From an uncultured Gammaproteobacteria bacterium (GTDB lineage Bacteria > Patescibacteriota > Microgenomatia > Levybacterales > GWA1-39-11), in the NCBI GenBank assembly GCA_964425075.1, contig CAYRKM010000001.1:705793-769792 (forward strand): a stretch of 64,000 nt of DNA, read 5' to 3'. Below the pieces are notes generated by a model. It searched no databases, was not told where the DNA came from, and saw only the letters and a list, made by a program, of their open reading frames with translations. How positions within the stretch are numbered: position 1 is the first letter of the stretch; every line of letters begins with the position of its first letter. The translations under genes were made by a program, and so were the position numbers. Shown here piece by piece: positions 5,359-56,714 of this stretch.

Positions 5359-6423
5359 ATGAAAATAGGAATTTATTCTCCATATCTTGACACGATGACT
5401 GGGGGAGAAAAGTATATATTTTCAATTGCCTCATGTCTCTCAAAAAATCATTCAGTAGATATTTTTTGGAATGATAAAGAAATAATTGAAAAGGCAACAC
5501 GAAAATTTAATTTAAATCTTGAGGGGGTAAGGATTGTTCCTAACGTTTTTTCTGAGCAAGTAAACACTTTAAAAAGATTAAAAGGAACATTTGCTTATGA
5601 CAGAATAATTGTTCTTTCAGATGGCAGCATACCGTTAGTTGCAAGCAAACAACTTATACTTCATTTTCAATTTCCAGTAGAGTGGGTGAATGCTAAGTCA
5701 CCATTTATTAAATTTAAAATGAGTAGGGTTAGTAAGGTAATTTGCAATTCTTATTACACAAAAAAATATATTGATAAGAAATTTAATATACAAAGCAATA
5801 TTCTTTTTCCTCCTTCAGACGTTAATACTGGAGATATACCTGAAAAAAAGAATCTGATTCTAACAGTTGGAAGATTCAATCCATTATCAGATGGAACAGA
5901 CTTTAAAAAGTTAACAGTAATGGTTGATGCTTTTAAAGACTTTCAGAAAAAAAGATTAAAAGGTTGGAGATTTGCAATAGTAACCAACGTATTGCCGGAG
6001 AATGATAAGGAGTTCGAAGAATTTAAAAGTAAAATTGGAAGTCAATACATCGAGATACATAAAAATGTCCCATTTGATGACATAGCAAAATTGTATAAAG
6101 AAGCAAAGATTTATTGGCACGCTGCAGGATTTGGAGTTGATATAGAAAAGAGGCCAGAATGGTTGGAGCATTTTGGTATGGCAACAGTTGAGGCGATGTC
6201 ATATGGAGCAGTGCCGGTTGTTATCAATGCGGGTGGTCAGAGGGAGATTGTGAGTAATGGGAAAAATGGTTTTTTATGGAATACAACTGAAGAGTTGGTT
6301 AACTATACACACAAAATTGCAACCGAACCAAAATTATATGAGGAATTATCTGTGAGCGCTAATGAATCTTCAAAACAATTTAGTAAAGGAAGGTTTTGCG
6401 AGGAGCTTAATCAGGTAATATGA
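5359..6423 (+). CDS. GT4 family glycosyltransferase (GT-B fold)
   Basis: 354 aa. C-terminal-domain motif EHFGMATVEAMSYGAVPVVINAGGQREIV matches the GT4 E-x7-E region. Confidence 0.7.
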   Translation: MKIGIYSPYLDTMTGGEKYIFSIASCLSKNHSVDIFWNDKEIIEKATRKFNLNLEGVRIVPNVFSEQVNTLKRLKGTFAYDRIIVLSDGSIPLVASKQLILHFQFPVEWVNAKSPFIKFKMSRVSKVICNSYYTKKYIDKKFNIQSNILFPPSDVNTGDIPEKKNLILTVGRFNPLSDGTDFKKLTVMVDAFKDFQKKRLKGWRFAIVTNVLPENDKEFEEFKSKIGSQYIEIHKNVPFDDIAKLYKEAKIYWHAAGFGVDIEKRPEWLEHFGMATVEAMSYGAVPVVINAGGQREIVSNGKNGFLWNTTEELVNYTHKIATEPKLYEELSVSANESSKQFSKGRFCEELNQVI

Positions 6424-8687
6424 TACAAAAAATATTTAAGTTCTACCTTCATATTAAAACATTTCTTTTTCCGCTTTTTTTGTTAATCCTTGTAGTTATT
6501 TTTTATTATCCAACATTTCTCCAAAACAAATTGCCAATTCCATCGGATACTATAGTTGGTTTGTATCACCCATACAGAGACTTATATGACAGAGAATATC
6601 CTCGAGGAATTCCATATAAAAACTTTTTAATCACAGATCCAGTTCGTCAAACTTTTGTATGGAAAGAATTAGCAACTAGTTCATTCAAAAAAATGGAATT
6701 ACCACTTTGGAATCCATACGAAATGGCAGGAAAACCTTTGTTAGCTAATTTCCAGTCAGGAGTGTTTTATCCCTTAAATATTTTGTTTGTTGTTCTGCCT
6801 TTTACAACTGCATGGACAGTTTTTATTGTTTTACAAAGTGTTTTTATGGGTTTATTCATGTATTTGTATTTAAGAAATTTAAGGCTATCTTTTATATCAT
6901 CTTTTCTGGGATCAATAGCTCTCATATTTTCATCATTTTCAGTTGTATGGCTTGAATGGGGGAATATTATACATGCTTTTTTGTGGCTTCCATTAATACT
7001 ACTTGCAGTCGACAAATTATTTCAGAAAAAGGATAGGTATTTATTTTTTTGGGGCATATTATACGTTCTAGCTTTATTGTCTGCTTTTTTTGCAGGATAT
7101 CTTCAGACCTTTTTCTACATGTTTGTTATTTCAATATTTTATTTTGTTCTTCGCTTAGGAACAAAAAATGCTAGGCGCCTTTTACACTTCATATTACTTA
7201 ATACAATTTTTGTTCTATTGTCTTTCATACAATGGTATCCAACATATAAATTTATTCTTTTATCTGCTCGAAGTATTGACCAGAATTATTTAGTCACTGA
7301 AGGATGGTTTATTCCCTTTAAGCATCTAATACAATTTGTAGCACCAGATTTTTTTGGAAATCCTACAACCCTTAATTATTGGGGAATGTGGAATTATGCT
7401 GAGCTTGGGGGATATATAGGCATAGTTTCTCTGATGCTCGTTCCCTTCGCTTTTTTTATAAGAAGAAAACTTGTGATGTTCTTTACTGCAATTGTTTTCA
7501 GCGGATTATTATTTGCAACTGACAATTTAATTGCAAGGATTCCCTTTCAATTAGATATTCCACTTATTTCCTCCTCCCAACCTACTCGTCTGCTATCAAT
7601 TATTTTATTCTCACTTGCTGTTCTTGCGTCATTTGGCATGGAATATGTACTTAATATAAAAAGAAAATTTTCAACCTTATTCCCGTTAGCAATATGGTTA
7701 GGTGTTGTCTTGCTATTATGGTCTGCGGTTTTTCTAAAAAGCCCATTATTATTTGACGATCAGAACGTAATAGCTATAGCAAAAAGAAATTTATTTCTTC
7801 CAACAGCGCTTATTTTAAGTAGTTCCCTTTTATTTTTTGCCTTAGCCTTTTTTAAGAATAAAACCTTTAGAGCGGGAATTATAATTTTAATTTTTGTTTT
7901 TCTTTCTTTCGATCTTCTTCGCTATTCATGGAAATTTACACCCTTCACTAAGTCTGAATATCTTTTTCCACAAACTAAAATAATAAGTTTTTTACAAAAT
8001 GATAAAAGCATTTTTAGAGTCGCAGCTACTGACCAGCGTATTATGCCTCCTAATTTTCTTACACATTATAGAATTCAAACTTTAGAAGGATATGACCCAT
8101 TATATTTAAGATCTTATGCTGAATTCATAGCTTCAATGGAAAGAGGAAAGCCAGATATTAATCCTCCCTTTGGATTTAATAGAATAATTACACCACATAA
8201 TGTTAATTCTTCCTTGATGGACTCTCTAAACGTTAAATATATTCTTTCTTTTGATGAGCTAACGGATAGTAAATTTAAAAAAATAATGGTAGAGGGTAGG
8301 ACTAAACTTTATGAAAATACCCAATCATTCCCACGTGCATATTTTGTAAAAAGTATAGATACTGGTAGTAATAATCAAATTGAAATTGAGAAAATACATA
8401 AAGTAGATCTTGAAAATGTGGCTATATTATCGCAATTCAGTGCACCAGGAGAAAAAGACTACACCAAAGGAGAGGCGAGAATAAAGTTATATTCAGAGAA
8501 TAAAGTTGTTATAGAAACTCAAAATATTGGTACGGGATTTCTTGTGCTTGCAGATTCTTTCTATCCTTCCTGGAAAGCAACAATTGATGGGAGTAAAACA
8601 ACAATTTATCCTACAAACTATATATTCAGAGGAGTTGTTGTGCCGGCTGGCAAGCATACTGTAGAATTTAGTATTACGCTTTTCTAA
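6420..8687 (+). CDS. YfhO-family membrane glycosyltransferase (GT-C); paralog of 1918..4266
   Basis: 755 aa. LPLWNPYEMAGKPLLANFQSGVFYPLNILF motif and C-terminal LVLADSFYPSWKATIDG...YIFRGVVVPAGKH module. Confidence 0.7.
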   Translation: MIQKIFKFYLHIKTFLFPLFLLILVVIFYYPTFLQNKLPIPSDTIVGLYHPYRDLYDREYPRGIPYKNFLITDPVRQTFVWKELATSSFKKMELPLWNPYEMAGKPLLANFQSGVFYPLNILFVVLPFTTAWTVFIVLQSVFMGLFMYLYLRNLRLSFISSFLGSIALIFSSFSVVWLEWGNIIHAFLWLPLILLAVDKLFQKKDRYLFFWGILYVLALLSAFFAGYLQTFFYMFVISIFYFVLRLGTKNARRLLHFILLNTIFVLLSFIQWYPTYKFILLSARSIDQNYLVTEGWFIPFKHLIQFVAPDFFGNPTTLNYWGMWNYAELGGYIGIVSLMLVPFAFFIRRKLVMFFTAIVFSGLLFATDNLIARIPFQLDIPLISSSQPTRLLSIILFSLAVLASFGMEYVLNIKRKFSTLFPLAIWLGVVLLLWSAVFLKSPLLFDDQNVIAIAKRNLFLPTALILSSSLLFFALAFFKNKTFRAGIIILIFVFLSFDLLRYSWKFTPFTKSEYLFPQTKIISFLQNDKSIFRVAATDQRIMPPNFLTHYRIQTLEGYDPLYLRSYAEFIASMERGKPDINPPFGFNRIITPHNVNSSLMDSLNVKYILSFDELTDSKFKKIMVEGRTKLYENTQSFPRAYFVKSIDTGSNNQIEIEKIHKVDLENVAILSQFSAPGEKDYTKGEARIKLYSENKVVIETQNIGTGFLVLADSFYPSWKATIDGSKTTIYPTNYIFRGVVVPAGKHTVEFSITLF

Positions 8688-8688
8688 T

Positions 8689-9621
8689 ATGCGAGTAGAT
8701 ATTATTATTCCGAATTACAACGGATCACATTTGATACGCGAAAACCTTCCAAAAGTACTCAATACTCTTAAGCCTTATAAAGGCAAAGTGATAATTGTTG
8801 ATGATGGTTCAAAACCTGAAGATAGGGTATCTTTACGAGAGGTTGTAAAAGGGTATTCAGGTAGTGAGGTTGAGTTGATTGAACACACCGTAAATAAAGG
8901 TTTTTCATCAGCAGTTAACACTGGAGTTAGGGCCTCTACGGCTGATTATGTTGTTCTTTTAAATTCGGATGTAATTCCTAATAAGGATTTTCTAAAACCT
9001 CTTCTTGAAGAAATTGAGAAGGACCCCTTAATTTTTGGAATAGGTTGCATGGACGAGAGTATTGAGGGCGAAAAAACAACACTAAGAGGGAGAGGTCAAG
9101 CAAAATGGAGTAGGGGGATGCTTATACATGAAAGGGGAGACGTTAGTAGTAGTGATACATTTTGGATATCGGGGGGTAGCAGCATCTTCAGAAGAGAATT
9201 ATATATGAAGCTTGGTGGGATGGATGAGATATATAACCCTTTTTACTGGGAGGATATAGACCTTTCATATAGGGCCCAAAAATCTGGATATAAAATTTCT
9301 TTTAATAGTAAATCAGTTGTTGAACATCTTCACGAAAAAGGTGCGATAAAGAAAAACTTTCGTAAGAACAAAGTAACAACAATTGTCTATCGAAATCAAT
9401 TTACTTTTCATTGGAAAAATATTAGTGAGCAACGACTATTAATAAGTCACATCCTGTGTCTTCCATACCACGCGCTAGGTGCACTAAAAAGAGGTGATAG
9501 TGAATTTTTTAAAGGATTATTCCTTGCCCTATTAAGGCTTTCTGCTATAATAAAAAAGCGAAGTATTCAAAAGAAAAATTACAAACTTTTGGATTCGGAA
9601 ATTATTAAAAAATTTGAATGA
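8689..9621 (+). CDS. GT2 family glycosyltransferase
   Basis: 310 aa. N-terminal VDIIIPNYNG and VDDGS motifs; C-terminal region paralogous to 1..279 and 62347..63261. Confidence 0.7.
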   Translation: MRVDIIIPNYNGSHLIRENLPKVLNTLKPYKGKVIIVDDGSKPEDRVSLREVVKGYSGSEVELIEHTVNKGFSSAVNTGVRASTADYVVLLNSDVIPNKDFLKPLLEEIEKDPLIFGIGCMDESIEGEKTTLRGRGQAKWSRGMLIHERGDVSSSDTFWISGGSSIFRRELYMKLGGMDEIYNPFYWEDIDLSYRAQKSGYKISFNSKSVVEHLHEKGAIKKNFRKNKVTTIVYRNQFTFHWKNISEQRLLISHILCLPYHALGALKRGDSEFFKGLFLALLRLSAIIKKRSIQKKNYKLLDSEIIKKFE

Positions 9622-10349
9622 AAAATAGCTCGTCACCAACATTGTCAATTATAATTCCTGCATATAACGAAGAAAATACAATAGGTGAGGTGCTTGATAA
9701 TCTTAAGAAGCTCGATTTTCTTTCAGGTTCTAGAGAATTTATCGTCGTAGACGATGGATCAAAAGATAATACTGCAAAAATTATTAAAGAGAAGAGCAAA
9801 AAAATATCTGAGATTAATTTTATCCAACACGAAAAAAATAAGGGAAAGGGTGCTGCCGTAAGAACAGGTATCCAAGCTTCAAAAGGGAAAGTTCTTATAG
9901 TTCAAGATGCTGATTTGGAGTACAGTCCAAGTGACATTCCTCGTTTGATTGAACCTATTCTTAAAAACAAAACTAAGGTTGTTTATGGGACAAGACTTCG
10001 TCAAAAACCTGTATTTTTTGGAAAAGACAAGACTCCTTTATTGTTAAATTTCTTTGGAAATAAATTTTTAAGTCTTGTAACCTCAGCGCTCTACGGTTCT
10101 TCAATTACCGATATGGAAACTGGATATAAGGCATTCTTAAGAACAGTTATTGAAGATATGAAGTTAAAGTCTCGTTCTTTTGATTTTGAACCTGAAATTA
10201 CTGCAAAAATACTTAAAAAAGGGATAAAAATTTTGGAACTTGATATAAAAGTGAATCCAAGAGGGTACGATGAGGGAAAAAAGATTGATGTTAGAAAAGA
10301 TGGTGCTATCGCCCTTTGGACGCTTATTAAATATAGATTTATAAATTAA
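9618..10349 (+). CDS. GT2, polyprenyl-phosphate sugar synthase type (Ppm/DPM1/GtrB/ArnC-like)
   Basis: 243 aa. LSIIIPAYNEENTIGEVL...VVDDGSKDNT...VQDADLEY is the signature of Dpm1-like enzymes that load sugars onto polyprenyl phosphate. Confidence 0.7.
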   Translation: MKNSSSPTLSIIIPAYNEENTIGEVLDNLKKLDFLSGSREFIVVDDGSKDNTAKIIKEKSKKISEINFIQHEKNKGKGAAVRTGIQASKGKVLIVQDADLEYSPSDIPRLIEPILKNKTKVVYGTRLRQKPVFFGKDKTPLLLNFFGNKFLSLVTSALYGSSITDMETGYKAFLRTVIEDMKLKSRSFDFEPEITAKILKKGIKILELDIKVNPRGYDEGKKIDVRKDGAIALWTLIKYRFIN

Positions 10350-11855: not shown

Positions 11856-11880
11856 TCAATAAGATTTATTCTGCAAGACT

Positions 11881-24754: not shown

Positions 24755-26396
24755 TGGTTTAACAGTAGTAATTCTTATAGCTTTACTTGCTGTTTTTGAT
24801 CTTTCGCATTATGGTATTCCGCCTACCCATGATGGCGAATATCACATTATGCGCTTTTGGCAATTCTACAAGAATCTCGAGGGTGGAATTATTTATCCTC
24901 GATGGGCACCAGATTTTAATAATGGTTTTGGAATTCCGCTATTTAATTATGTTTATCCCTTGCCTAATTACGTTGCTTCCCTTTTTCATTTATTTGGGTT
25001 TGGTTTTATTGAAAGCTTAAAGCTTAATTTTGCTTTTGCAACAATTACTGGTAGCATTTTTTTCTACTTGTGGACAAAAAAATATTGGGGCAATTTGGGT
25101 GGGGTTGTATCAAGTGTTTTTTATACTTTTTCGCCATATCATTTTCTAGACATATATGTACGAGGATCTGTTGGTGAAGTTTGGAGTTTAGCGTTGTTTC
25201 CAGGTTTATTATGGGCATATTATAATTACGTTTATTCTAGGAAATATAAATATTTTGTATTATCCGCAGTTTTTCTTGCATTACTGATCCTGGCGCACAA
25301 TATCCTGGCAGTAATTTTTTTCTCACTTTTCCTCTTGTATGCTTTATCATTTCTCAATATTAAAAAGAATGTAGATGTTAATTTAATTGGCTTAATTTGC
25401 CTTACGTTAATAGGATTTGGATTAGCAGCTCCTTTTTGGCTCCCTGCGATTCTTGAGACAAAATATGTTTCAGGACTCCAAATATTTAATCCCACAGACC
25501 ATTTCCCCAAACTATATCAACTTATATATTCTTCGTGGGGATACGGATTTTCTGGTGTTAAGCCGTCAGGGGCAGAAGGACAAATGTCTTTTCAAATTGG
25601 TATTGCCAACCTTCTTGCTGTGGTCGTTTCATCTGTAATAGTTTTTCTAAATAGAAAAAGGATAGTTTTCTTATCTATTCTAGCTTTTTTTGTTTTTGTT
25701 TTTCTAATAACGCCCCTGTCTGGTTGGCTGTGGGATGTTATTCCTGGCGTGTCCTACGTGCAGTTTCCATGGAGACTTCTTAGTGCGGTAATAGTTTTAG
25801 CATCTTTTTTGGCAGGTAGTGTTGTTTCAGACGATTTATTTAAGAAAAAAAGAAAAATTCAAATATTAATGGCAGCTGGGGCAATATGTATTTCGATAAT
25901 CTTGGGCATAAAGTACGCCAAAGCCCCTTTTTACCATGAACGAGCAGATGAACACTATTTAACCAGAAGTAATTTCACCGATGGAACAAATAGTCCGGGA
26001 AATTTATTTAATACAAAATGGCTTAAGAATGTTCCAGAGAAAAAAAGCAAAAAAGTAGAAATCATTAGAGGAAGGGGAAATATTGCTATTGCGAAGCAAG
26101 CAACTGATGGTTTGTTATTTTCTGTTAAAACGAACGAGAATCTTCTAATTCAGGTTAATACTGCTTTCTTTCCAGGTTGGGTAGCTTTGGTTGATAATTC
26201 TTCGACCGAGATAATAAATAACTCAGGAATAGTAAATTTAGTAGTACCTAGTGGGAAGCATAGTGTTAGAATATTTCTCAAAAATACAGTAATTCAAGAG
26301 ATATCCTACATGTATTTTTTATTTTCGATTTTACTTATAATATTAATGCCTAAAAATAAATTTTTTGAAAGAAAAAAATATGAGAATTGGAATTGA
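24720..26396 (+). CDS. Polytopic membrane protein, GT-C-like; paralog of 276..1931
   Basis: 558 aa. GIPPTHDGEYHIMRF...YPRWAPDFNNGFGIPLFNYVYP parallels the N-terminus of 276..1931. C-terminus FFPGWVALVDNSS. Confidence 0.55.
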   Translation: MKTIQQLFIKFSGLTVVILIALLAVFDLSHYGIPPTHDGEYHIMRFWQFYKNLEGGIIYPRWAPDFNNGFGIPLFNYVYPLPNYVASLFHLFGFGFIESLKLNFAFATITGSIFFYLWTKKYWGNLGGVVSSVFYTFSPYHFLDIYVRGSVGEVWSLALFPGLLWAYYNYVYSRKYKYFVLSAVFLALLILAHNILAVIFFSLFLLYALSFLNIKKNVDVNLIGLICLTLIGFGLAAPFWLPAILETKYVSGLQIFNPTDHFPKLYQLIYSSWGYGFSGVKPSGAEGQMSFQIGIANLLAVVVSSVIVFLNRKRIVFLSILAFFVFVFLITPLSGWLWDVIPGVSYVQFPWRLLSAVIVLASFLAGSVVSDDLFKKKRKIQILMAAGAICISIILGIKYAKAPFYHERADEHYLTRSNFTDGTNSPGNLFNTKWLKNVPEKKSKKVEIIRGRGNIAIAKQATDGLLFSVKTNENLLIQVNTAFFPGWVALVDNSSTEIINNSGIVNLVVPSGKHSVRIFLKNTVIQEISYMYFLFSILLIILMPKNKFFERKKYENWN

Positions 26397-41798: not shown

Positions 41799-44700
41799 AT
41801 GCAGTTTATTAAAAAAAACCACTTTTTCTTTGAGATTGCATTTATTGTTCTTTTAAGTCTTATACCCCTCATCTGGTTCTCTCCACAACATATGATTTTT
41901 GGTAGTGATTCGGGTTATCCATTGGATTATGTTCAGTATTTTATTCAAAGAACCTATACTTGGACATCTGCCCAGAGCTTCGGTGAAGACATGTCGACAT
42001 TTATGGGAGCATTGCCACTCCATGGAATTCAGTTCGTTCTATCCATTCTAGGAATACCGTATTTTGATATCCAAAAAGTAACTTTAGTGTTTTGGTTTGC
42101 TTCGATCGCCTTTGCAATGTATTTCTGTGTAAAGTATTTTTTTAACAAACCTGAGCATTGGCCGATAAGACTAATATCTGTTGTTCTTTACTCTATCAAT
42201 TTTTACATCTTCCTTTTTTGGACAATAGGTTCTCAAACTACTTTAAGCGCTTATGTATTGTTACCGCTCAGTTTTCTTATTGTATTCATGTTTATAGATA
42301 AGAAAATCTCTCCCATACTTGCCGCAGTTTGTTTTAACTTATCCTACTTAGTTTTTAATGCAGGAGGAATAGGTGGAGTACCGCTTTTAGGTCCTGTTGC
42401 CGTAACCATTTTGAGTGGAATAATTTACCAGTCTATATTCACATTCAACAAAGAGTTCTTTGTGAGAGTACTAAGTCTTCTATTTTTTTCATTTATAATC
42501 TTTCTTGGATTAAATGCCTACTTTCTTTTTCCTTTTCTTTCTTCATTTGCTCAGCAGTTTAATACCCTGGTCGTAAAAAGTGGTGGTATTGATGGAGTTA
42601 TCGAATGGACAAATTTTATAAGCAAGTACGATAGTTATGCAAATCTGTTTAGACTACAGGGGGATAATATTTGGTATACGACGGAAAAAACATATGCTAC
42701 GCCGTATCTTAATAACCCAATCCTTATTTTAGCTAGTTTCAGTTTTCCAATACTTGCTTATTTTGTTCTATTTTTTAAATTAGAATATCGGATAAAAAAA
42801 CTTGTTTATTTTTTAATTACCATTTCATTGGTTGGGATTTTTTTATCAGCAGGTTCTCATGATCCATTGGGCTTTTTATATGAGTTAATGCTTAGGTTTA
42901 TCCCTGGATTTGCAGCATTTAGATCAGCTTTCTATAAATTTATGCCGTTGGTTCTTCTGCCCTTTTCAATCCTTATTGCAATGTCAATTTACATGATTTC
43001 ACAAAAAATTAGAATGTCTTATAGATTTTTAATCCCTATTATATTTATTTCATCTATTTTCGTTTATCACTATCCATTTTTTAATGTAGGAAATTTTTTG
43101 ACAAATAACACATTCAGCACAATGATTAAGATTCCAAATTACGTTACCAAATTTGTTGAAGAAAAACCTCCGCCAAATGATCAGTATCGAACTTTGGTTT
43201 TACCTCCATTTGACGATAACTATGCTATTGAGGCATACAAATGGAGTTATTTTAGTGGATATCCAATATTTCCGGGCGTTAGTAATAAGTCATTTATAGA
43301 GAACAATGCTTATTTAAATACTAATGAAGGAATTTTGGTGAACAGGCTTTACAAATTATTACGCAACGAAGAATATGATTTGTTTGTCGAAGAAGCATCA
43401 AGATTAAGTATTAGATATGTCCTTTTAACATCAGATGTCCATACCGAGATTACACCTCGTGAGGATCCTAAATTTTATCAAAGTAAATTGAAAACTAGCT
43501 ATTTTAAACCCGTTTGGAGCAATGGCCCATGGAGTATTTATGAAATTAACAGACCAACTAATTCAAAATTTCATGCATTTAGTGCCCTTACGTCATTTAA
43601 TGGAGAAAATCTTGAGGTACTTCCAATTCTCCCAGCCGGCAATAACAAATTTATTGAAAAAACAAAACAACATCCATCAAGTTCTTTAAATAGTGCAATA
43701 GATTCTATCAAATGTTCGTCTTGTATTTCTGTTGACAATGAGGACTTAGTTGCGGAACCACCAATTATTTTACCCAACTCCATATTTTACTCAATAAAGC
43801 TTTCTCGTGAAAGCAAAATAAATCCAAACCCATCAACAAATCAAGCAATTTACGATTTATTGGGAAGATCTCAAATAAGACTTTCTGAATTAAGAGGATT
43901 ATCTCAAATTCCAGAGATAAACGATGAAAATTGGTTTAAATCTATAGGTTTATTGACATCTAACTGGGCAACGATTTCAAGGATTCAAGATGAAAATACA
44001 GCAAATGATCTTTATCTTTTTAATAAATTAGAGAATTATAGTCATTTTCAGATAACCAATCTTAAGGAAATTTATTTTTACGAACCAGTTGGCAAAAGTA
44101 AAAAAATGGGAGGCTTGATAAGAGAGGCAATTGCAATGATCGAGAAAGTTCAGATAAAAAATGAAAGTAATATACAGAAAACAGAGAGTGGAAATATGTT
44201 TACATATAATATTGATTCTTTAACTCTTTTACAGAAGTCAAATCTAATTGTTGATCATGTTAGCCTTATGAAAAATGAGAATGGCGGTGTGATTTATCCG
44301 AATGCAATTAAATTTGATAATAACGAACCATTAAGTATTTATGCACAAAATGACACTAAGGACATTGTTATTCCAATACCCAAGATAAATCCAATCAAGA
44401 AAATCACTTTGTTTTTTCCGGAGAAAGAAAATAAATTTGTCTTTCCACGAGAAAAAGTTATCAACTCATCCTTTTTCAAGAAGGAAAGCTGCATTACTGG
44501 AGACATTAAAGACTTCAAATGGTATAAGACGTATCGCGTTACTTCAAAAATTGTTGGTAGTCCCGATAACCTGCATGTTTATATTACAAATATTTCAGCG
44601 GAAAAGCCCGATGCTGAAATATTTAAACCCGACAGGATAATTGACATTGATAAAGCAAGCATTAGGTATTTACATGTTGACATTCAAGGACGAGAAAACA

Positions 44701-45179
44701 CAACAGCTGTTCAGATTTATTTTTGTGCTGATCCTGGTAGAAATCCTTTTGGAGCATATCTAGATACAAGGGTAGAGGAAGTTTACACACCAATTATGTA
44801 TATAAAAAGTGATTTAAGAGAGAGCAACAAAATTGTTCCCAAGATTAGTTACAAAACAGTTACTCCAACAGAATACAGAATCAAAATTAATAATGCATCA
44901 ACACCGTATTTTCTTGGATTTTCAGAAAGATATTCTGACTTTTGGGAATTAAAAGATTTATCAACGGGTAAGGTAATAGAGGCTAAACATTTTACTCTTA
45001 ATGGTTATGCGAATGGATGGCTAATAACAAGAAAGGGCACATATGAGCTTGTATTAAAATTCACTCAACAGAGTATATTTAATACTGGATTTAAAATAAG
45101 CATAATATCTATATTATTAGTTGTTTTTTACTTAATAAGTAAGATTAGGAGTAAAAAAAATAAAAATGGAAAAATTTAA
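41799..45179 (+). CDS. Giant polytopic membrane protein (1126 aa): N-terminal multi-TM GT-C-like domain, extracytoplasmic domain of about 600 aa, C-terminal TM anchor
   Basis: SDSGYPLDY acidic motif after TM1, then 12 or more TM segments to about residue 440, then a long hydrophilic region. The C-terminus FSERYSDFWELKD...GTYELVLKF plus a TM helix is paralogous to the C-terminus of 52621..54612. Confidence 0.5.
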   Translation: MQFIKKNHFFFEIAFIVLLSLIPLIWFSPQHMIFGSDSGYPLDYVQYFIQRTYTWTSAQSFGEDMSTFMGALPLHGIQFVLSILGIPYFDIQKVTLVFWFASIAFAMYFCVKYFFNKPEHWPIRLISVVLYSINFYIFLFWTIGSQTTLSAYVLLPLSFLIVFMFIDKKISPILAAVCFNLSYLVFNAGGIGGVPLLGPVAVTILSGIIYQSIFTFNKEFFVRVLSLLFFSFIIFLGLNAYFLFPFLSSFAQQFNTLVVKSGGIDGVIEWTNFISKYDSYANLFRLQGDNIWYTTEKTYATPYLNNPILILASFSFPILAYFVLFFKLEYRIKKLVYFLITISLVGIFLSAGSHDPLGFLYELMLRFIPGFAAFRSAFYKFMPLVLLPFSILIAMSIYMISQKIRMSYRFLIPIIFISSIFVYHYPFFNVGNFLTNNTFSTMIKIPNYVTKFVEEKPPPNDQYRTLVLPPFDDNYAIEAYKWSYFSGYPIFPGVSNKSFIENNAYLNTNEGILVNRLYKLLRNEEYDLFVEEASRLSIRYVLLTSDVHTEITPREDPKFYQSKLKTSYFKPVWSNGPWSIYEINRPTNSKFHAFSALTSFNGENLEVLPILPAGNNKFIEKTKQHPSSSLNSAIDSIKCSSCISVDNEDLVAEPPIILPNSIFYSIKLSRESKINPNPSTNQAIYDLLGRSQIRLSELRGLSQIPEINDENWFKSIGLLTSNWATISRIQDENTANDLYLFNKLENYSHFQITNLKEIYFYEPVGKSKKMGGLIREAIAMIEKVQIKNESNIQKTESGNMFTYNIDSLTLLQKSNLIVDHVSLMKNENGGVIYPNAIKFDNNEPLSIYAQNDTKDIVIPIPKINPIKKITLFFPEKENKFVFPREKVINSSFFKKESCITGDIKDFKWYKTYRVTSKIVGSPDNLHVYITNISAEKPDAEIFKPDRIIDIDKASIRYLHVDIQGRENTTAVQIYFCADPGRNPFGAYLDTRVEEVYTPIMYIKSDLRESNKIVPKISYKTVTPTEYRIKINNASTPYFLGFSERYSDFWELKDLSTGKVIEAKHFTLNGYANGWLITRKGTYELVLKFTQQSIFNTGFKISIISILLVVFYLISKIRSKKNKNGKI

Positions 45180-45564
45180 AAAAAAATATACACAATTTGA
45201 TACCTTTGTCAAAAAGTCAATGCCTCTTTATCTTGTTAACAACAGTCAGAGAATATATATATCATTATTTATAATAATAGGAGGATTTGTAATTGTTAGA
45301 ATTCCTTATTTGGTTTTAATTTTTAAGCCTGAACTTTTATATCCAATTACCATTGCTCTTGCTTTTTTTATACTCAGGGTTAACGAGCGAATAATGCTTT
45401 ACACAATAATTCTGATTTTTGGCTTTGCTCCAATTTTGGTGATATTCAATAATTCTAATTCAGCTGATCGAATCATTAATATAGCCTTTTTTCTTATACT
45501 GCTTCTTTCTATAAAACTAATTAATAATCTCCGGCAAAAAAAATATGAAAAAAGAAAAAGTTAG
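45166..45564 (+). CDS. Small 4-TM membrane protein (possible GtrA/GtcA-like polyprenyl-P-sugar flippase)
   Basis: 132 aa with four hydrophobic helices. Function is inferred only from size, topology and context. Confidence 0.3.
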   Translation: MEKFKKKYTQFDTFVKKSMPLYLVNNSQRIYISLFIIIGGFVIVRIPYLVLIFKPELLYPITIALAFFILRVNERIMLYTIILIFGFAPILVIFNNSNSADRIINIAFFLILLLSIKLINNLRQKKYEKRKS

Positions 45565-46162: not shown

Positions 46163-47137
46163 TTATTCTAGTGTCTTTTTAATTGCTTCCTTAAATTTTT
46201 CTGATATTTTTTCTTGTGAATTAATACTTGGATGTATTGCATCTGAAAAATCATTTTCTTCTAGCCAGTTGGTAGTATCGATTAGATAAACATTTGATTC
46301 TTTTGCGACCCTACTAATAACATTGTTATAAATATTTAAATTTTCATTGCTTATGTCCTTTCTTGTAAATAATAATGGTATAAATATTTTCCCCTTAGGG
46401 TTCCATTTCTTAATATCGTTGATAATTTCTAGATAATCTTTCTCAAACGCTTCAACTGAAACATTATTTGCTGCGTCATTTGAGCCAAGAAAAATAACAA
46501 CGATATCGGACTTATATTCCATAAGGTCTTTTTCATATCTTTTTACAGCGTTATCAATTCCTTTGACTTCGGTCAAAGAGGAGCCCAAAATACTTGCATT
46601 ATGAAGCTCGTAATCAAGTTTGTTTGCCAATAAATGTGAGTAATTATTCTTTCCATATATTGTGGAGATGGAATCACCCAATAGGGAGATGGTTTTTTCG
46701 TGTAATTTGAATGGTTGGATTTTTGATGCTTTATTAACATTAATACTATTTAGAGTAATGTCGCATGGTTCATAAAAGTATGTGCAGAAATGGCGAATGG
46801 TTATATGATGCTGCTTGTTTTTATCTACAAGAATTGTGAGTTTTTGCTTGCTAATATTAGGAGAACTAATAATATATTTTTCATCATCAACTAAAATCTC
46901 CACTCCTTGATCAGCTTTAGAGTTTGTCGAAAATTGAAAACTAATATTTTCGGTATTGTTTATTCTAAAGCCAAGTTCCCCTCCTGCATAAAGACTTTTA
47001 TTATTCTTCCATCCCATACCTCGAACTAATTTCGAGCTTTGTGAGATATCCTTTTCCCTGTAGGAATTCATGAAAAAGTTTGTAAGAAAAAAGCCAAGTG
47101 CCGCCAAACAAATAATTAAAAGTAGGGTGTGTTTCAT
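46163..47137 (-). CDS. SGNH/GDSL-family hydrolase with N-terminal TM anchor
   Basis: 324 aa. ISLLGDSIS (block I, with Ser) and IVVIFLGSNDA (block III) motifs; N-terminal hydrophobic helix. Confidence 0.6.
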   Translation of the reverse strand: MKHTLLLIICLAALGFFLTNFFMNSYREKDISQSSKLVRGMGWKNNKSLYAGGELGFRINNTENISFQFSTNSKADQGVEILVDDEKYIISSPNISKQKLTILVDKNKQHHITIRHFCTYFYEPCDITLNSINVNKASKIQPFKLHEKTISLLGDSISTIYGKNNYSHLLANKLDYELHNASILGSSLTEVKGIDNAVKRYEKDLMEYKSDIVVIFLGSNDAANNVSVEAFEKDYLEIINDIKKWNPKGKIFIPLLFTRKDISNENLNIYNNVISRVAKESNVYLIDTTNWLEENDFSDAIHPSINSQEKISEKFKEAIKKTLE

Positions 47138-51460: not shown

Positions 51461-52621
51461 ATGAAAAGCACCGCCAAATCAATAATATATGTAAATTATT
51501 CCCCCTACGAAAATTCTGGAAAAATATTAGATTATCTGTTAGAGAATTTCAAAATTGTGTGTCTTTTTTCAATCGGGTTCCACAGTTTGGAGAACAAAAA
51601 AAATTATAATATCCTCTCAATTTACAAAAAAGGTAAATTAATTGAAACTTATTCCTTGTTTCAATTACCCATTCCGCAAAATTTAGTTTTTATTCTTATT
51701 CCAATAAGGTCTGCAATTTCTTTTATAGAAATTATTATTTATTCAATATGGTTAAAGAATAAGTTTAAGAAAATTGACATTTATTTCACTGCAAATGCAT
51801 TCACTGCCTGGATAGGAAAAATTTTGAAGTCATTTCGAATTGTTAATAGGACTGTATTTTGGGTGTGGGATTATTACCCTCCAATTCATGAGAATAAATT
51901 GATAATGCTAATGCGCTATGTTTATTGGCAGTTTGATAAGATGAGTTCTCACTCTGATACGGTAGCATTTGTTAATCAAAGGTTACTTGATTTGAGAAAA
52001 GATATTGGAATTTATCCTAAGGACTCAGAATACCCTATTGTGCCAATTGGAACAGATAAAATTAAAATCAAAAATGAAAAAAAAGTGCGCAAGAAATTGA
52101 AATTTGGATTTATTGGTGTATTAAAGAAGAGTCAGGGGGTTGACATAATATTTAAGAATGCAAATGACTTAACCAAGAAATTTGGGGAAGTGAAGTACGA
52201 GATAGTTGGCTCTGGACCTGATGAAAAGTATTTTAAAGGTAGAGCTAGAAAATCTGGTATAAAAACAACCTTTTATGGATATCTTGAAGGGGATTCGTTT
52301 AACGACGTTTTAAAAGATTGCACTATTGGAATTGCAACATACACTTCTGAGGCTAGTAATGTTTCTCAGTATGGAGATCCAGGTAAAATTAAGAGATATT
52401 TGAGTTTGGGGATCCCGGTGATTACAACTGATATAATTGAATTTGCAGAAGAAATTGAAAAGTCTGGCGCAGGTGTTATTGTAAAATATAATGATAAGAA
52501 ATCTTTAATGGAGGCAGTTGAAAAAATTATGAATAAGCAGGAGGAGTATAGGAAGAATGCATATAAGCTTGGCCAAAAATTTTATTATAGAAAAATTTAT
52601 CCGCAGATGTTTGCAATTTAA
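51461..52621 (+). CDS. GT-B glycosyltransferase (GT4-like)
   Basis: 386 aa. C-terminal Rossmann domain with FGFIGVLKKSQG...GDPGKIKRYLSLGIPVITTD. Confidence 0.5.
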   Translation: MKSTAKSIIYVNYSPYENSGKILDYLLENFKIVCLFSIGFHSLENKKNYNILSIYKKGKLIETYSLFQLPIPQNLVFILIPIRSAISFIEIIIYSIWLKNKFKKIDIYFTANAFTAWIGKILKSFRIVNRTVFWVWDYYPPIHENKLIMLMRYVYWQFDKMSSHSDTVAFVNQRLLDLRKDIGIYPKDSEYPIVPIGTDKIKIKNEKKVRKKLKFGFIGVLKKSQGVDIIFKNANDLTKKFGEVKYEIVGSGPDEKYFKGRARKSGIKTTFYGYLEGDSFNDVLKDCTIGIATYTSEASNVSQYGDPGKIKRYLSLGIPVITTDIIEFAEEIEKSGAGVIVKYNDKKSLMEAVEKIMNKQEEYRKNAYKLGQKFYYRKIYPQMFAI

Positions 52622-54612
52622 TGACAAATAGACTAGACAAGATTACTGTACCTACCCTCGTTTTTTTATTAATTCTCTCGATTTTTTATAGGTGGTTTTG
52701 GGGTGGTGTTCTTGCGGGTGGAGACTGGCCATATCTATATCCTCAGGGTGTTCTTGAAGTTGTCCCTTTGTCTTCATGGGATCTTCTTTTTAATAATGGT
52801 ATGGGGCAGAGTGCTTTTCCTAAAATCTGGTTTGACGCGTATTCTCTTTTAATAGTAAAACTTGCCCAATTTTTGCCTTGGGGAGTCTTTGAAAGACTTG
52901 TGTGGTTTTTCCCGTATATTGTGGTTTCTTTTTTTGCTTCTTATTTTCTTGGGAAAAAGATGAATTTGTCCTCAAATTTTGCCTGTCTTGCCGGAGTAAT
53001 TTATTCGCTTAATACCTACATTTTTATGGTTGTTTCAGGGGGGCAGGCTGGTGTCTTTACTGCATATGCTTTTATGCCGGTAGTTTTTTATGGAGTTCTT
53101 AGTTTATTTGAAAATTTTACGTTTAGGCGATCTTTAATCCTCTCCCTTTGCTTCTCGATTCTTATGCTGCTCGATTTAAGAGTGGGATATATGTTTTTGT
53201 TTGCTTTGTTTTTATTTACTATTGTTAATCTCACTTTTTATCCTAAAGGTTTTATTAAAAAAGTAATGTTAATATTTACAGTTCCGGGAGTTGTTGCATT
53301 TCTCTTGCATATTTTTTGGATAGGTCCAATTTTAATAATGAGAAGAAATCCAGCCGTAGAACTTACGGATGTTTATACATCCTCATCAACTTTAGATTTT
53401 TTTAGTTTTGCCAGACTTGAAAATGCAATAAGCCTTCTGCATCCCAACTGGCCTGATAATATTTTTGGGAAAGTAGCATTCCTAAGACCCGAATTTTTAA
53501 TAACCCCAATAATAGTATTTGTGTCACTTCTCTTTGTTGAAAAAGAGAAAAAATCTAGAAAGTTGTATTTATTGTCATTCATGCTGTTGGCATTATTTGG
53601 AATTTTCCTGGCAAAAGGTACCAATGATCCTTTTGGGGAAATATACAGAACCGCTTTTAACGTCATTCCAGGTTTTGTAATGTTTCGCGACCCAACAAAG
53701 TGGTACATGCTAATTGCTGTCTCTTTTTCAGTTTTAATTCCTTACTCACTTTCTAAGCTGACAGAAATTTTTGTAAACTTGAAATTTAAAAAGGCGGAAT
53801 TAATAGTATGTGCTGTGTTTCTTATTTTTTGGGCATTTATTATGCAGGATGCTGTTTCTGGAAAGGTTAAGGGAACTTTTTATCCTCGGCAGATTCCTTC
53901 AGAATTTAGTAGTCTTGCTGAGAAAATTTCCAATGATAAAGAATTTTATCGAACACTTTGGGTGCCAACATATCCTACGCTTGCTTATGTTTCCAATACG
54001 CATCCGGCAATTCCTGGAATCGAATTTTTTAAGGCAACTTCACTCGACAACCTATTAAATAATCTTGAAAAAGGAAATAATATAACTCAACTACAATATG
54101 CATCTGTTAAATATGTAATTTTACCTGAAGACATTTATGGAAGGATTTTTGTAAATGATAGAAAATACGATGACAACGTATACAAAAGAGCTCTTGATAA
54201 ATTGGAAAAAAATTCAAATATAAAAGAGGTAGGTAGATACGGTAAAAATGTTGTTTTTGAAATCAAAAACCCAAAACAGCATTTTTGGTTGGAGAACAAC
54301 TCTGCTAAAGTGAACTACAAATATGTCTCTCCCACCGAATACATCTTGGATATCTCAAACGTAAAGAAGGGTGACAGGCTTATTTTTTCAGAAACTTTTG
54401 ATAAATTTTGGGAGGCAAAAAACGATAAATTTGTTGTGGGTAGTGCTCAATTTGGCAGGTTTAATAGTTTTAGTCTGCCAAAAGAAGGAACTTATCAATT
54501 TAGGGTTATTTACAAACCTCAGGCATGGCTAAATATGGGTTTATTTATAAGTGGAGCATGCTTATTAATTGTCGCGATTTTAATTATCAAGATTAAGGAT
54601 AAAAAAATATGA
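52621..54612 (+). CDS. Polytopic membrane protein, GT-C-like, with extracytoplasmic C-terminal domain and terminal TM anchor; related to 41799
   Basis: 663 aa. GGDWPYLYPQ motif after TM1. The C-terminus FSETFDKFWEAKND...EGTYQFRVIYKP plus a TM helix parallels the C-terminus of 41799. Confidence 0.5.
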   Translation: MTNRLDKITVPTLVFLLILSIFYRWFWGGVLAGGDWPYLYPQGVLEVVPLSSWDLLFNNGMGQSAFPKIWFDAYSLLIVKLAQFLPWGVFERLVWFFPYIVVSFFASYFLGKKMNLSSNFACLAGVIYSLNTYIFMVVSGGQAGVFTAYAFMPVVFYGVLSLFENFTFRRSLILSLCFSILMLLDLRVGYMFLFALFLFTIVNLTFYPKGFIKKVMLIFTVPGVVAFLLHIFWIGPILIMRRNPAVELTDVYTSSSTLDFFSFARLENAISLLHPNWPDNIFGKVAFLRPEFLITPIIVFVSLLFVEKEKKSRKLYLLSFMLLALFGIFLAKGTNDPFGEIYRTAFNVIPGFVMFRDPTKWYMLIAVSFSVLIPYSLSKLTEIFVNLKFKKAELIVCAVFLIFWAFIMQDAVSGKVKGTFYPRQIPSEFSSLAEKISNDKEFYRTLWVPTYPTLAYVSNTHPAIPGIEFFKATSLDNLLNNLEKGNNITQLQYASVKYVILPEDIYGRIFVNDRKYDDNVYKRALDKLEKNSNIKEVGRYGKNVVFEIKNPKQHFWLENNSAKVNYKYVSPTEYILDISNVKKGDRLIFSETFDKFWEAKNDKFVVGSAQFGRFNSFSLPKEGTYQFRVIYKPQAWLNMGLFISGACLLIVAILIIKIKDKKI

Positions 54613-54836: not shown

Positions 54837-56008
54837 TAAATTTAATTAAATCAACATTCTATAATGAGGAATTAACTAAGAAAAAATTAGCCTCTTTTAT
54901 CAAGCGCTCTACTAAATTAAGCTTTGGAAATTACTGTCAGAAATTTGAGAAACAATTCGCAAAGTACCAGGGCAGAAAATATTGCATATTTGTAAATAGT
55001 GGAAGTTCGGCAAATTTAGCTTTGATTCAGTCTCTTCTTAACCTTAGGAAAATTAAGAAAGGGGATAGAGTAGGATTCTCTGCTTTAACATGGTCTACAA
55101 ATGTTATGCCACTTATCCAGTTGGGTCTTGAACCTGTACCAATTGATGTGGAGCTTTCGACCCTTAATATTTCAAGCAAGACGCTTCAGTTAACACTTAA
55201 AAAAAATAAAATAAAAATGTTGTTTCTTACCAATCTTTTGGGATTTTGTAGCGACATTGACGAAATTCAAAAAATTTGCAAGCAAGAAAGAATAATTTTA
55301 ATCGAGGACACATGCGAATCATTGGGAACTGTTTATAAAGGAAAAAAACTCGGAAATTTTGGTGTCGCTTCTACCTTCTCCTTTTATGTAGGACATCACA
55401 TGTCAACAATTGAAGGAGGAGCAATAGTAACAGATAGTTTGGAGCTTGCAAATCAATTAAGAATTGTAAGAGCGCATGGGTGGGATAGGAATCTTACATT
55501 AAAGCGGCAGGAAAAAATGAGAAGCAATTTTAAAGTGAATTCAACATTTTATTCTCGATACACATTTTATGATTTGGGTTTTAATTTAAGGCCTACAGAA
55601 ATTAATGGATATATAGGTTGCTTGCAAATTCAGTATATCAATGAAATTACAAGAACCAGAAACAAAAATTTTTTTGAGTTTGCAAAGAAAATATATTCTC
55701 GTACAGATAAATATTATCCGATTAGCTTTTCGCATATTGATTTTGTATCAAACTTTGCAGTTCCAGTTATTTGTAAGACTAAAAAAATCAGAGATGAATT
55801 AGTTGAAAAGTGTGATAATAAGGTTGAGATACGTCCAATTGTGGGAGGGAATATTGTTTCTCAGCCCTTTTTTGCAAAATATTTTTCATACTCAAAAAAA
55901 GATAATCCAAACGCTTCTCTTGTCCATGAACAGGGATTATACTTTGGTAACAATCCTGAATTAACAAAAAGAGAAAAGAGCGAGATTATTAAGATTTTTG
56001 CGGATTAG
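54833..56008 (+). CDS. DegT-family PLP/PMP-dependent sugar 3-dehydratase (ColD/E1 (RfbH)-like; His replaces the catalytic Lys)
   Basis: 391 aa. EDTCESLG, TFSFYVGHHMSTIEGGAIVTD and RAHGWDRNL match the ColD/E1 3-dehydratase pattern, in which His replaces the PLP-binding Lys. Confidence 0.6.
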   Translation: MINLIKSTFYNEELTKKKLASFIKRSTKLSFGNYCQKFEKQFAKYQGRKYCIFVNSGSSANLALIQSLLNLRKIKKGDRVGFSALTWSTNVMPLIQLGLEPVPIDVELSTLNISSKTLQLTLKKNKIKMLFLTNLLGFCSDIDEIQKICKQERIILIEDTCESLGTVYKGKKLGNFGVASTFSFYVGHHMSTIEGGAIVTDSLELANQLRIVRAHGWDRNLTLKRQEKMRSNFKVNSTFYSRYTFYDLGFNLRPTEINGYIGCLQIQYINEITRTRNKNFFEFAKKIYSRTDKYYPISFSHIDFVSNFAVPVICKTKKIRDELVEKCDNKVEIRPIVGGNIVSQPFFAKYFSYSKKDNPNASLVHEQGLYFGNNPELTKREKSEIIKIFAD

Positions 56009-56714
56009 TTGAAGGTGCATTTTTTACTCCATACAAAAACCACTTAAAATAACTTGGAAGCCACTTCAAAAGTTTGAATTTTGATGTTCCATGTATTCTT
56101 TCTTTCCAAACAGTGGGAACTTCATCAATTTTGTAACCCAATCTATATGCCTTAACAGTTAACTCAAGAGGGAGTTCGAACCCGCCAGTGCTTTCAATTT
56201 TTATATCTTTAAGAATTTCTCTTCTAAAACATTTAAACGCATTTGTTGCGTCTAATGTATTAATTCCTGAAAAGCGATTTAGAAGAGTACTTCCTATCCT
56301 TGAAAGCCCGCCTTTTATTTTCGGACCGCCAACTCTTTTCCCTCCACGGCTATATCGAGAACCTGAAACAAAATCTGCACCAGAATCAAGTTTTTTTACC
56401 ATTTTATCTACGTCTTTTGGATTATCTGAAAGATCTGCCATCATAATACAAACATATTCAGTTTGGGATTCTTCAAGACCCGTTTTTAGAGCCTTAATAA
56501 CACCAATCCCATACTTATTTTTAACAAGTCTTATATCTTTGTTCCCTTTGCCCCATTTCTTAATAGCATTAATTGTTGGGTCAGTATTTGTGTCATAGAT
56601 AAAATTTATAATGTAGGGCGTTTTGACATAAGAAGTAATACCCTTTAGCAAAGGAGGAATATTTGCTGCCTCATTGAAGACAGGTATAACGAATGTAAGT
56701 TTCTTTTTTTTCAC
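55989..56714 (-). CDS. GT2, polyprenyl-phosphate sugar synthase type (Ppm/ArnC-like)
   Basis: 241 aa. LTFVIPVFNEAANIPPLL...MMADLSDNP. Last gene of a three-gene minus-strand operon. Confidence 0.65.
   Translation of the reverse strand: MKKKKLTFVIPVFNEAANIPPLLKGITSYVKTPYIINFIYDTNTDPTINAIKKWGKGNKDIRLVKNKYGIGVIKALKTGLEESQTEYVCIMMADLSDNPKDVDKMVKKLDSGADFVSGSRYSRGGKRVGGPKIKGGLSRIGSTLLNRFSGINTLDATNAFKCFRREILKDIKIESTGGFELPLELTVKAYRLGYKIDEVPTVWKERIHGTSKFKLLKWLPSYFKWFLYGVKNAPSTNPQKS

Follow-up and report, generated by a model that had tools for sequence, protein, structure and literature searches.

Here we present an analysis of T1126, the 1126-amino-acid product of the open reading frame (ORF) 41799..45179 (+) in a 64,000-nucleotide stretch, hereafter the window, of contig CAYRKM010000001.1 (GenBank assembly GCA_964425075.1). 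T1126 is very probably an integral-membrane glycosyltransferase with the GT-C fold, belonging to the AftD lineage (PF11847, formerly DUF3367); its gene lies in a very large locus for cell-surface glycans, in a Patescibacteria genome of the Microgenomates type. Its fold, its family relationships, the homology of its C-terminal module and the conservation of its key residues are documented below from profile comparisons, structural models and family alignments; by analogy with characterised enzymes we also propose a donor, a catalytic site, an acceptor and a role for the module. The closest characterised relative is AftD rather than YfhO.

T1126 and its relationship to AftD

The assignment to the AftD lineage follows from a profile match in the Protein Data Bank (PDB), from PF11847 matches among relatives and from the structural model. 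When the T1126 family profile was compared with the PDB, the only real relative was mycobacterial AftD (6W98/6WBX; E 4e-5), matched in three collinear stretches that cover the N-terminal transmembrane (TM) region, the soluble domain following it and the C-terminal module, the last of these falling on AftD residues 1197-1269, just before TM12. PF11847 (GT-C_AftD) was matched at E < 0.01 by 18 of 41 relatives of T1126; five of the eight relatives tested exceeded its curated 26-bit cutoff, with scores of 28.7-36.2 bits at 25-35% identity to T1126, and one of them spans profile positions 23-544 of 661. The AlphaFold (AF2) model of T1126 (pLDDT 87.1, pTM 0.84) gave the same answer in a Foldseek search, which was led by three AftD entries (E 4e-17, probability 1.00, TM-score about 0.45, 1429-1461 columns), followed by STT3 (E 1.5e-5), PglB (E 7e-3), DPY19 and ArnT. 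The matches at E <= 0.001 comprised the three AftD entries, STT3 and two Cry-toxin entries, with PglB, DPY19 and ArnT weaker than this threshold. The toxin matches (Cry1Ac, Cry1Ca and Cry4Ba; E 4e-4 to 4e-3) were rejected as spurious, their TM-scores being only 0.09-0.16, and they probably stem from the combination of a helix bundle with a beta-sandwich, not from homology.

AftD has been described as a GT-C core of 11 TM helices followed by an alpha/beta domain, three carbohydrate-binding modules (CBMs), one "structural beta-sandwich", TM12 and a TM13-16 bundle that binds acyl carrier protein (ACP), with homologs described only in Actinobacteria (bioRxiv 10.1101/2019.12.22.885152). In common with AftD (PDB 6W98, 6WBX, 6WBY), T1126 has an alpha/beta soluble domain after its GT-C TM core, an extensive extracytoplasmic region carrying beta-sandwich domains, and a small beta-sandwich right before a single re-entering TM helix, the equivalent of TM12; an acidic residue and common W/G positions recur in the first loop. 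The differences are nevertheless considerable. Identity in the structural alignment is about 9%, CBM1-3 are absent from T1126, which has a DUF5667-like helix bundle and one beta domain instead, and the protein ends 10 residues past its TM12 equivalent, so that TM13-16 and the ACP-binding site are missing. T1126 also comes from Patescibacteria, and no family of the decaprenyl-phospho-arabinose pathway was detected among the window ORFs scanned (those up to 59 kb). A literature search on Patescibacteria GT-C enzymes and on DUF3367 returned nothing relevant.

A sequence-only reading of the window had singled out this ORF as the largest present, which it is (the runner-up encodes 782 amino acids), and had sketched a layout that hydropathy and the AF2 model bear out in every element. 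A hydrophobic, multi-TM stretch (about residues 1-430) carries the motif SDSGYPLDY at residues 36-44 and is followed by about 660 hydrophilic residues; an aromatic-rich segment (about 1026-1088) is then directly abutted by a single TM helix (1089-1116). The TM core and the alpha/beta domain together are the PF11847 region. The long-helix bundle beyond them resembles DUF5667 (PF18915), which was matched at residues ~670-768 in 15 of the 41 relatives and which in one of them, P0047, scored 28.9 bits, over its cutoff of 27 bits. The same relative has a marginal CBM_4_9 match at 904-978 (24.6 bits against a cutoff of 25.9) within the larger beta domain. The helix-bundle domain occurs as a separate protein in such loci too, as locus L004 encodes a stand-alone 162-amino-acid DUF5667 protein (11828-12316, +) about 2 kb downstream of its T1126 homolog. 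Two pairs of cysteines were also observed, an invariant CxxC (C639/C642; window 43713-43724) in a low-confidence linker past the alpha/beta domain and a near-invariant pair (C898/C976; window 44490-44726) in the beta domain; disulfides outside the cytoplasm, or a metal site, are the probable explanation.

The family is large. A word-indexed search gave 67 homologs, mostly of 1100-1170 amino acids, and an exhaustive search found at least 3495 representative clusters matching T1126 at E <= 1e-3. Where the homologs are named, the name is only "hypothetical protein", from Patescibacteria. Nearly all of the 55 genome loci with a T1126-like gene are from Levy-, Gottesman-, Davies-, Roizman- or Woesebacteria. 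Many such loci (L006, L010-L012, L014, L015 and others) are titled "uncultured Gammaproteobacteria bacterium" despite Patescibacteria-type gene clusters, and these titles look like placeholder or mislabelled taxonomy of metagenome-assembled genomes.

The shared C-terminal module and the proteins that carry it

A C-terminal module had been proposed, from the sequence, to be common to T1126, the protein at 52621..54612 (here designated P663), two YfhO proteins and the pair 276/24720. When hidden Markov models (HMMs) of the module were run against all 66 ORFs of the window, exactly these six proteins were recovered, each at its extreme C-terminus: T1126, P663, YfhO782, YfhO755 and two PTPS_related proteins of 551 and 558 amino acids. 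In a BLASTP comparison within the window, the C-termini of T1126 and P663 are 37% identical over 106 residues (E 7e-11). Family alignments (53 sequences for T1126, 52 for P663 and 42 for the window YfhO proteins) were then compared by hhalign, the modules being cropped to exclude the TM anchor and each pair being judged against 20 column-shuffled controls. T1126 and P663 matched at 99.5% (E 2e-22; best shuffled control 20.7), T1126 and YfhO at 92.6% (E 5e-7; score 36.5, best control 18.3), and P663 and YfhO at 94.6% (E 7e-8; score 40.9, best control 16.2); with the anchor kept, the T1126-YfhO match was 97.1%. The linkage forms a chain from T1126/P663 to YfhO and from YfhO to PTPS_related, with the YfhO module HMM picking up both PTPS_related proteins; neither of the latter matched the T1126 module profile directly in the 66-ORF census, so their link to it is transitive. 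The PMT-type GT-Cs of the window and its membrane proteins of 500, 560 and 609 amino acids were considered as carriers or close relatives and were rejected by the module HMMs and hhalign.

Modelled alone, the T1126 module is a beta-sandwich (AF2, pLDDT 93.7) whose best PDB match is AftD (6W98/6WBY), at a root-mean-square deviation (rmsd) of 1.9 Å over 73 columns with a probability of 1.00. Glycoside hydrolases come next, matched at an rmsd of 3-4 Å through their C-terminal beta-sandwiches, domains that are mostly structural and non-binding. This superposition, together with the position of the HMM match, identifies the module as the counterpart of the structural beta-sandwich of AftD, and the anchor as the counterpart of TM12.

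By its sequence profiles, then, the module is a genuine homologous domain common to T1126, P663, both YfhO and both PTPS_related proteins. It is hardly credible that the C-terminal resemblance is merely compositional, the outcome that the sequence-only reading had named as its own refutation: the T1126 and YfhO modules are only about 15% identical and T1126 gives no direct BLAST match to YfhO, but the profile scores are about twice the best of the shuffled controls, the matches are confined to six proteins and always to the same C-terminal position, the full-length alignment of P663 with YfhO is collinear from the TM core through module and anchor, and the module has a defined fold shared with AftD. 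The expectation that module and anchor together end every one of these proteins held for five of the six; YfhO755 (6420..8687, +, 755 amino acids) stops right past the beta-module.

As to function, the module and its TM helix most likely act, to judge from AftD, as a strut tying the end of the ectodomain to the membrane beside the catalytic core, and not as an acceptor site. We regard it as unlikely that the module is instead a miniature CBM that binds the acceptor glycan and presents it to the active site in all these GT-Cs, and the earlier suggestion of an acceptor-binding beta-domain found no support. In favour of binding are the conserved aromatic and polar residues of the module (Y1026, W1049, H1064, N1072 and W1074), with one Trp kept across the T1126, P663, YfhO, PTPS_related and AftD alignments, and the speculation in a review that YfhO may use its extracellular domains to bind the acceptor polymer (PMC8035078). 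Against it, the AftD authors call the counterpart "structural" and set it apart from the three CBMs, for which there are sugar-binding sites and glycan-array data (bioRxiv 10.1101/2019.12.22.885152), and the module is found beside the membrane anchor whatever the predicted acceptor, which scaffolding fits better; the glycoside hydrolase sandwiches follow AftD among the fold matches, but match far worse. A better candidate for acceptor binding in T1126 is the larger beta domain (about 800-1005), where one relative has its marginal CBM_4_9 match.

The six carriers are related beyond the module. BLASTP aligned T1126 with its short paralog P663 in two collinear high-scoring segments (TM domains, E 4e-12), so that T1126 amounts to P663 with an insert of about 430 residues; the two family profiles aligned by hhalign at 100% (E 2e-42), and P663 has at least 670 homologs in Patescibacteria. 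The TM core of the T1126 family aligned with YfhO at 96.6% (over 125-458) and with the PTPS_related pair at 92.6%, and with the PMT-type GT-Cs of the window at no more than 6%. A GT-C subgroup of T1126, YfhO and PTPS_related does exist, therefore, and the grouping coincides with possession of the module. In this respect the broader YfhO-like superfamily suggested from sequence was correctly perceived; however, it is a subgroup of the established GT-C superfamily, and AftD stands nearer to T1126 than YfhO does. In Pfam, YfhO, PTPS_related, PMT and STT3 all belong to a single GT-C clan. AftD had already been reported as a top HHpred match for YfhO-type enzymes in a 2021 review (PMC8035078). The module-plus-anchor is probably ancestral to the subgroup comprising AftD-like, P663-like, YfhO and PTPS_related proteins; as it joins these enzymes and separates them from the PMT-type GT-Cs, it provides a classification marker and represents a common architectural solution.

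Within this subgroup the differences are informative. YfhO (PF09586) is the GT-C member of a three-component system, with CsbB and GtcA, by which Bacillus, Staphylococcus and Listeria decorate lipoteichoic or wall teichoic acid with GlcNAc. The two window YfhO proteins match PF09586 at 95.8 and 64.1 bits, whereas T1126 and P663 have no PF09586 match. T1126 shares with YfhO a related TM core, the C-terminal beta-module with its anchor and probably the donor logic, that is, a polyprenyl-phosphate sugar supplied by a GT2 enzyme; it differs in having about 350 extra ectodomain residues, in being closer to AftD, and in that no flippase of the GtrA/GtcA family is recognised beside it, the small neighbouring gene having no Pfam match. 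The PTPS_related proteins (PF10131) likewise have a related TM core and, through YfhO, the module and anchor, but are about half the length of T1126 and functionally uncharacterised. Additionally, a parallel can be drawn with MmpA of the Corynebacterineae, whose gene lies near aftD; this short, AftD-like membrane protein is reported to be homologous to the first 11 TM helices of AftD (bioRxiv 10.64898/2026.07.31.741767). One long and one short AftD-like paralog in a single locus are mirrored by T1126 and P663; however, the match of P663 to the NCBIfam "MmpA family trehalose lipid delivery protein" is weak (30.5 bits), far under the curated cutoff of 210, and the parallel may reflect an independent duplication.

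Candidate active site and alternative functions

In the 53 aligned sequences of the T1126 family, D37 and K380 are among the invariant residues, and R375 is nearly so. D37 follows TM1 in the model and lies in the first outer loop, a position that is a hallmark of the catalytic or donor-binding acidic residues of GT-C enzymes. Its counterpart in the P663 family is D35, while R375/K380 are matched there by R356/K360 and, in YfhO, by R375. The residues reported as essential in AftD are K39, D41, E251, K361 and D474 (bioRxiv 10.1101/2019.12.22.885152), and the invariant K380 is a candidate counterpart of K361.

By analogy with AftD, YfhO, ArnT and PglB, a mechanism can be proposed in which T1126 most likely uses a lipid-phosphate sugar donor. 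A cytoplasmic GT2 enzyme would load the sugar onto polyprenyl phosphate, and the lipid-linked sugar would be flipped to the outer leaflet. The core of about 11 TM helices would then bind it, with Asp37 and the basic residues R375 and K380 forming the donor or catalytic site, and the sugar would pass to an acceptor glycan outside the cytoplasm, which the ectodomain (alpha/beta domain, DUF5667-like bundle and CBM-like beta domain) would hold. The C-terminal sandwich and anchor would provide the strut proposed above.

Several observations weigh against this interpretation. T1126 itself has no Pfam or NCBIfam match, even at E 0.1, so that its identification had to be routed through homologs and profiles, and every database name in the family is the uninformative one given above. 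On the extrapolated HMM alignment, D37 falls one or two positions away from the essential K39 and D41 of AftD, in a register uncertain by 1-2 residues, and the essential D474/E475 of AftD correspond to G487/Y488 in T1126, at a position that is not conserved in the family. For the module, the YfhO and PTPS_related copies are tied to the T1126/AftD sandwich by sequence profiles only, its structural role is taken from the description given by the AftD authors and not from experiment, and its invariant residues Y1026, W1049, N1072 and W1074 would suit sugar binding as well.

The lack of conserved D474/E475 equivalents would be understandable if T1126 were a non-catalytic GT-C-fold scaffold or a lipid- or glycolipid-handling factor, like MmpA or like AftD in the non-enzymatic part that it has been proposed to play in assembling the mycomembrane, and the weak MmpA match of P663 points the same way. 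We nevertheless consider this quite improbable: D37, R375 and K380 vary little or not at all, however diverged the family, as expected of a working GT-C site, the locus holds polyprenyl-phosphate sugar synthases and many sugar-modifying enzymes, and the preprint on MmpA itself mentions a Foldseek result by which that protein may be a glycosyltransferase (bioRxiv 10.64898/2026.07.31.741767). An acceptor of a different kind, an S-layer protein or pilin, would make T1126 an oligosaccharyl- or O-glycosyl-transferase and not a polysaccharide builder. STT3 and PglB are indeed among its fold matches and several PMT-type GT-Cs are encoded in the window, but the AftD match is about 12 orders of magnitude better than that to STT3, T1126 has no STT3 or PMT match in Pfam and no WWD motif in its sequence, and its ectodomain carries the CBM-like beta domain, so that a protein acceptor appears improbable as well. 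An AftD-like glycosyltransferase acting on a surface glycan remains the interpretation preferred here.

A conserved membrane neighbour and the glycan locus

Directly downstream of the T1126 gene, and overlapping its stop by 14 nucleotides, is an ORF of 132 amino acids that is a candidate partner subunit. In 39 of 42 loci the position directly downstream is taken by a homologous ORF of about 107-144 amino acids, also where the identity of the large protein to T1126 is only 22-26%. These small proteins are very hydrophobic, with four predicted TM helices and both ends inside, and their first outer loop carries the conserved motif PY(I/L/V/F)N. A profile of 31 of them found no match to AftD even at E <= 10, and no relative in the PDB; they belong to no Pfam family, and none of the 31 matched the GtrA-family Pfam model at E <= 1. 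No fusion protein was found in the six loci with over-long matches; these hold either a P663-like paralog downstream of a T1126-like gene, separated by the small ORF in four of the loci, or tandem paralogs. In L010, L019, L034 and L049, from other genomes, the T1126-like gene, small ORF and P663-like gene stand in direct tandem, and L022 has two T1126-like paralogs side by side that the small ORF does not separate; the two large paralogs of the window are 7.4 kb apart.

AftD was recently shown to function together with TmaT, a membrane protein that has its own gene, in one complex, and the locus also encodes MmpA (bioRxiv 10.64898/2026.07.31.741767); a conserved integral-membrane neighbour beside the T1126 gene is a further likeness to AftD. 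That the small ORF is a split-off TM13-16 of AftD agrees with its topology but is not supported by sequence, and the same holds for a GtrA-type flippase, which its size and topology would fit. It is possible, though we put it forward only tentatively, that the T1126-family enzymes are obligate two-subunit GT-Cs, in which a translationally coupled PYxN protein of about 120 amino acids with four TM helices (N-in/C-in) would be either the split counterpart of AftD TM13-16 or a new, dedicated lipid-carrier or flippase subunit. If true, this would define a Microgenomates-specific envelope-glycan machine whose helix-bundle ectodomain is not seen in characterised GT-Cs.

Nearly the whole window (1-64000; GC content about 33%) is one glycan-biosynthesis locus. 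It encodes about 16 multi-TM proteins that are GT-Cs or candidates: two YfhO, two PTPS_related and five PMT/PMT_2-type proteins (one under the Pfam cutoff), T1126 and P663, together with a PMT/PMT_2 paralog without a Pfam match of its own (17969-19513), a protein with a weak GT87-like match and three without a Pfam match. Many GT2 and GT4 enzymes, methyltransferases, DegT aminotransferases and epimerases are also present. Patescibacteria, also known as the Candidate Phyla Radiation (CPR), have tiny genomes and largely uncharted envelopes; with a source contig of about 835 kb, more than 60 kb of surface-glycan genes is a remarkable share of such a genome. The order methyltransferase, large GT-C, small ORF, hexapeptide acetyltransferase, membrane protein of about 555 amino acids, further genes, DegT and P663-like gene is conserved in a locus where the homolog of T1126 shares 35% identity with it. 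The 560-residue multi-TM protein of the window at 47219-48901 (+), with a soluble tail of about 150 residues, has a 36% identical counterpart (E 7e-92) in locus L001; it matches nothing in Pfam or NCBIfam and none of the T1126, P663 and YfhO profiles by hhalign. Between it and the acetyltransferase gene lies a GDSL/SGNH hydrolase gene (46163-47137, -) whose product has an N-terminal TM segment; the syntenic L001 cluster has a GDSL gene elsewhere.

A candidate maker of the lipid-linked donor is a GT2 protein encoded about 11 kb from T1126, and so not adjacent to it (Table 1). A second GT2 protein (9618..10349, +) has PDB matches that are also led by polyprenyl-phosphate sugar synthases of the DPMS/GtrB/ArnC type. 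Both are about 240 amino acids long, compared with 322-374 residues in DPMS, GtrB and ArnC, and the candidate donor synthase has no TM helix in the hydropathy sketch; both thus seem to be without the C-terminal TM helices typical of such synthases. Compared with the three-component transmembrane glycosylation systems, a GT2 synthase-like protein is present, whereas Pfam identified no GtrA/GtcA-type flippase beside T1126.

Table 1. Position of T1126, its domains and related features in the window
Feature	Coordinates	Strand	Basis
T1126, full ORF; AftD-like GT-C membrane glycosyltransferase (probable)	41799..45179	+	homologs, PDB profile match, Foldseek
T1126 GT-C TM core, residues ~1-430, about 11 TM helices	41799..43088	+	AF2 helices; hhalign to YfhO (125-458), P663 family and PTPS_related pair; PF11847 in relatives
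T1126 Asp37 codon, first extracytoplasmic loop (GSD37SGYP), candidate catalytic residue	41907..41909	+	invariant in 53 sequences
T1126 extracytoplasmic alpha/beta domain of the GT-C super-domain, residues ~440-640	43116..43718	+	AF2 secondary structure; HMM 451-585 vs AftD 439-569; PF11847 reaches here in relatives
T1126 long-helix bundle, DUF5667-like, residues ~660-795	43776..44183	+	AF2 helices 664-795; PF18915 matches in relatives
T1126 larger beta domain, residues ~800-1005, possible CBM	44196..44813	+	all-beta in AF2 model; marginal CBM_4_9 in relative P0047
T1126 C-terminal 7-strand beta-sandwich module, residues ~1012-1088	44832..45062	+	stand-alone AF2 model; AftD fold match; HMM to AftD 1197-1269; cropped hhalign
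T1126 terminal TM anchor, residues 1089-1116, then 10-residue basic tail	45063..45146	+	AF2 helix 1089-1125; hydropathy; AftD architecture (TM12 equivalent)
Conserved 4-TM ORF, 132 amino acids, candidate partner subunit	45166..45564	+	conserved downstream of T1126 homologs
P663, short paralog: same TM core, alpha/beta domain, module and anchor, without the ~430-residue insert	52621..54612	+	BLASTP, hhalign
P663 module, residues ~562-637	54304..54531	+	BLASTP, hhalign, HMM census
YfhO782 module, residues ~673-746, then TM anchor	3934..4155	+	T1126 / P663 module HMM E 5e-4 / 2e-4 among 66 ORFs; hhalign
YfhO755 module, residues ~683-752, no TM anchor after	8466..8675	+	HMM census
PTPS_related 551-amino-acid protein, module (approximate), then TM anchor	1653..1835	+	YfhO module HMM E 4e-7; BLASTP to YfhO C-termini E 1e-4
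PTPS_related 558-amino-acid protein, module, then TM anchor	26076..26276	+	YfhO module HMM E 1e-9; BLASTP E 1.5e-4
GT2 polyprenyl-phosphate sugar synthase-like, candidate maker of lipid-linked donor	55989..56714	-	PDB: only DPMS 5MLZ (E 2e-15), GtrB, ArnC; Pfam GT2

The GT-C superfamily and the link between YfhO and AftD were already known; what T1126 adds is an AftD-like GT-C that differs in its ectodomain, is without the ACP-binding bundle and has a small, conserved membrane protein encoded beside it. The last of these is a concrete new lead. Nothing in these findings overturns current understanding. The importance of T1126 lies mainly in the annotation of CPR envelopes and in this lead to a partner protein, the findings being otherwise largely those expected from known enzyme families. 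An AftD-like identity gives a testable function to a large family of "hypothetical" proteins, and extends the AftD lineage well beyond the Actinobacteria.

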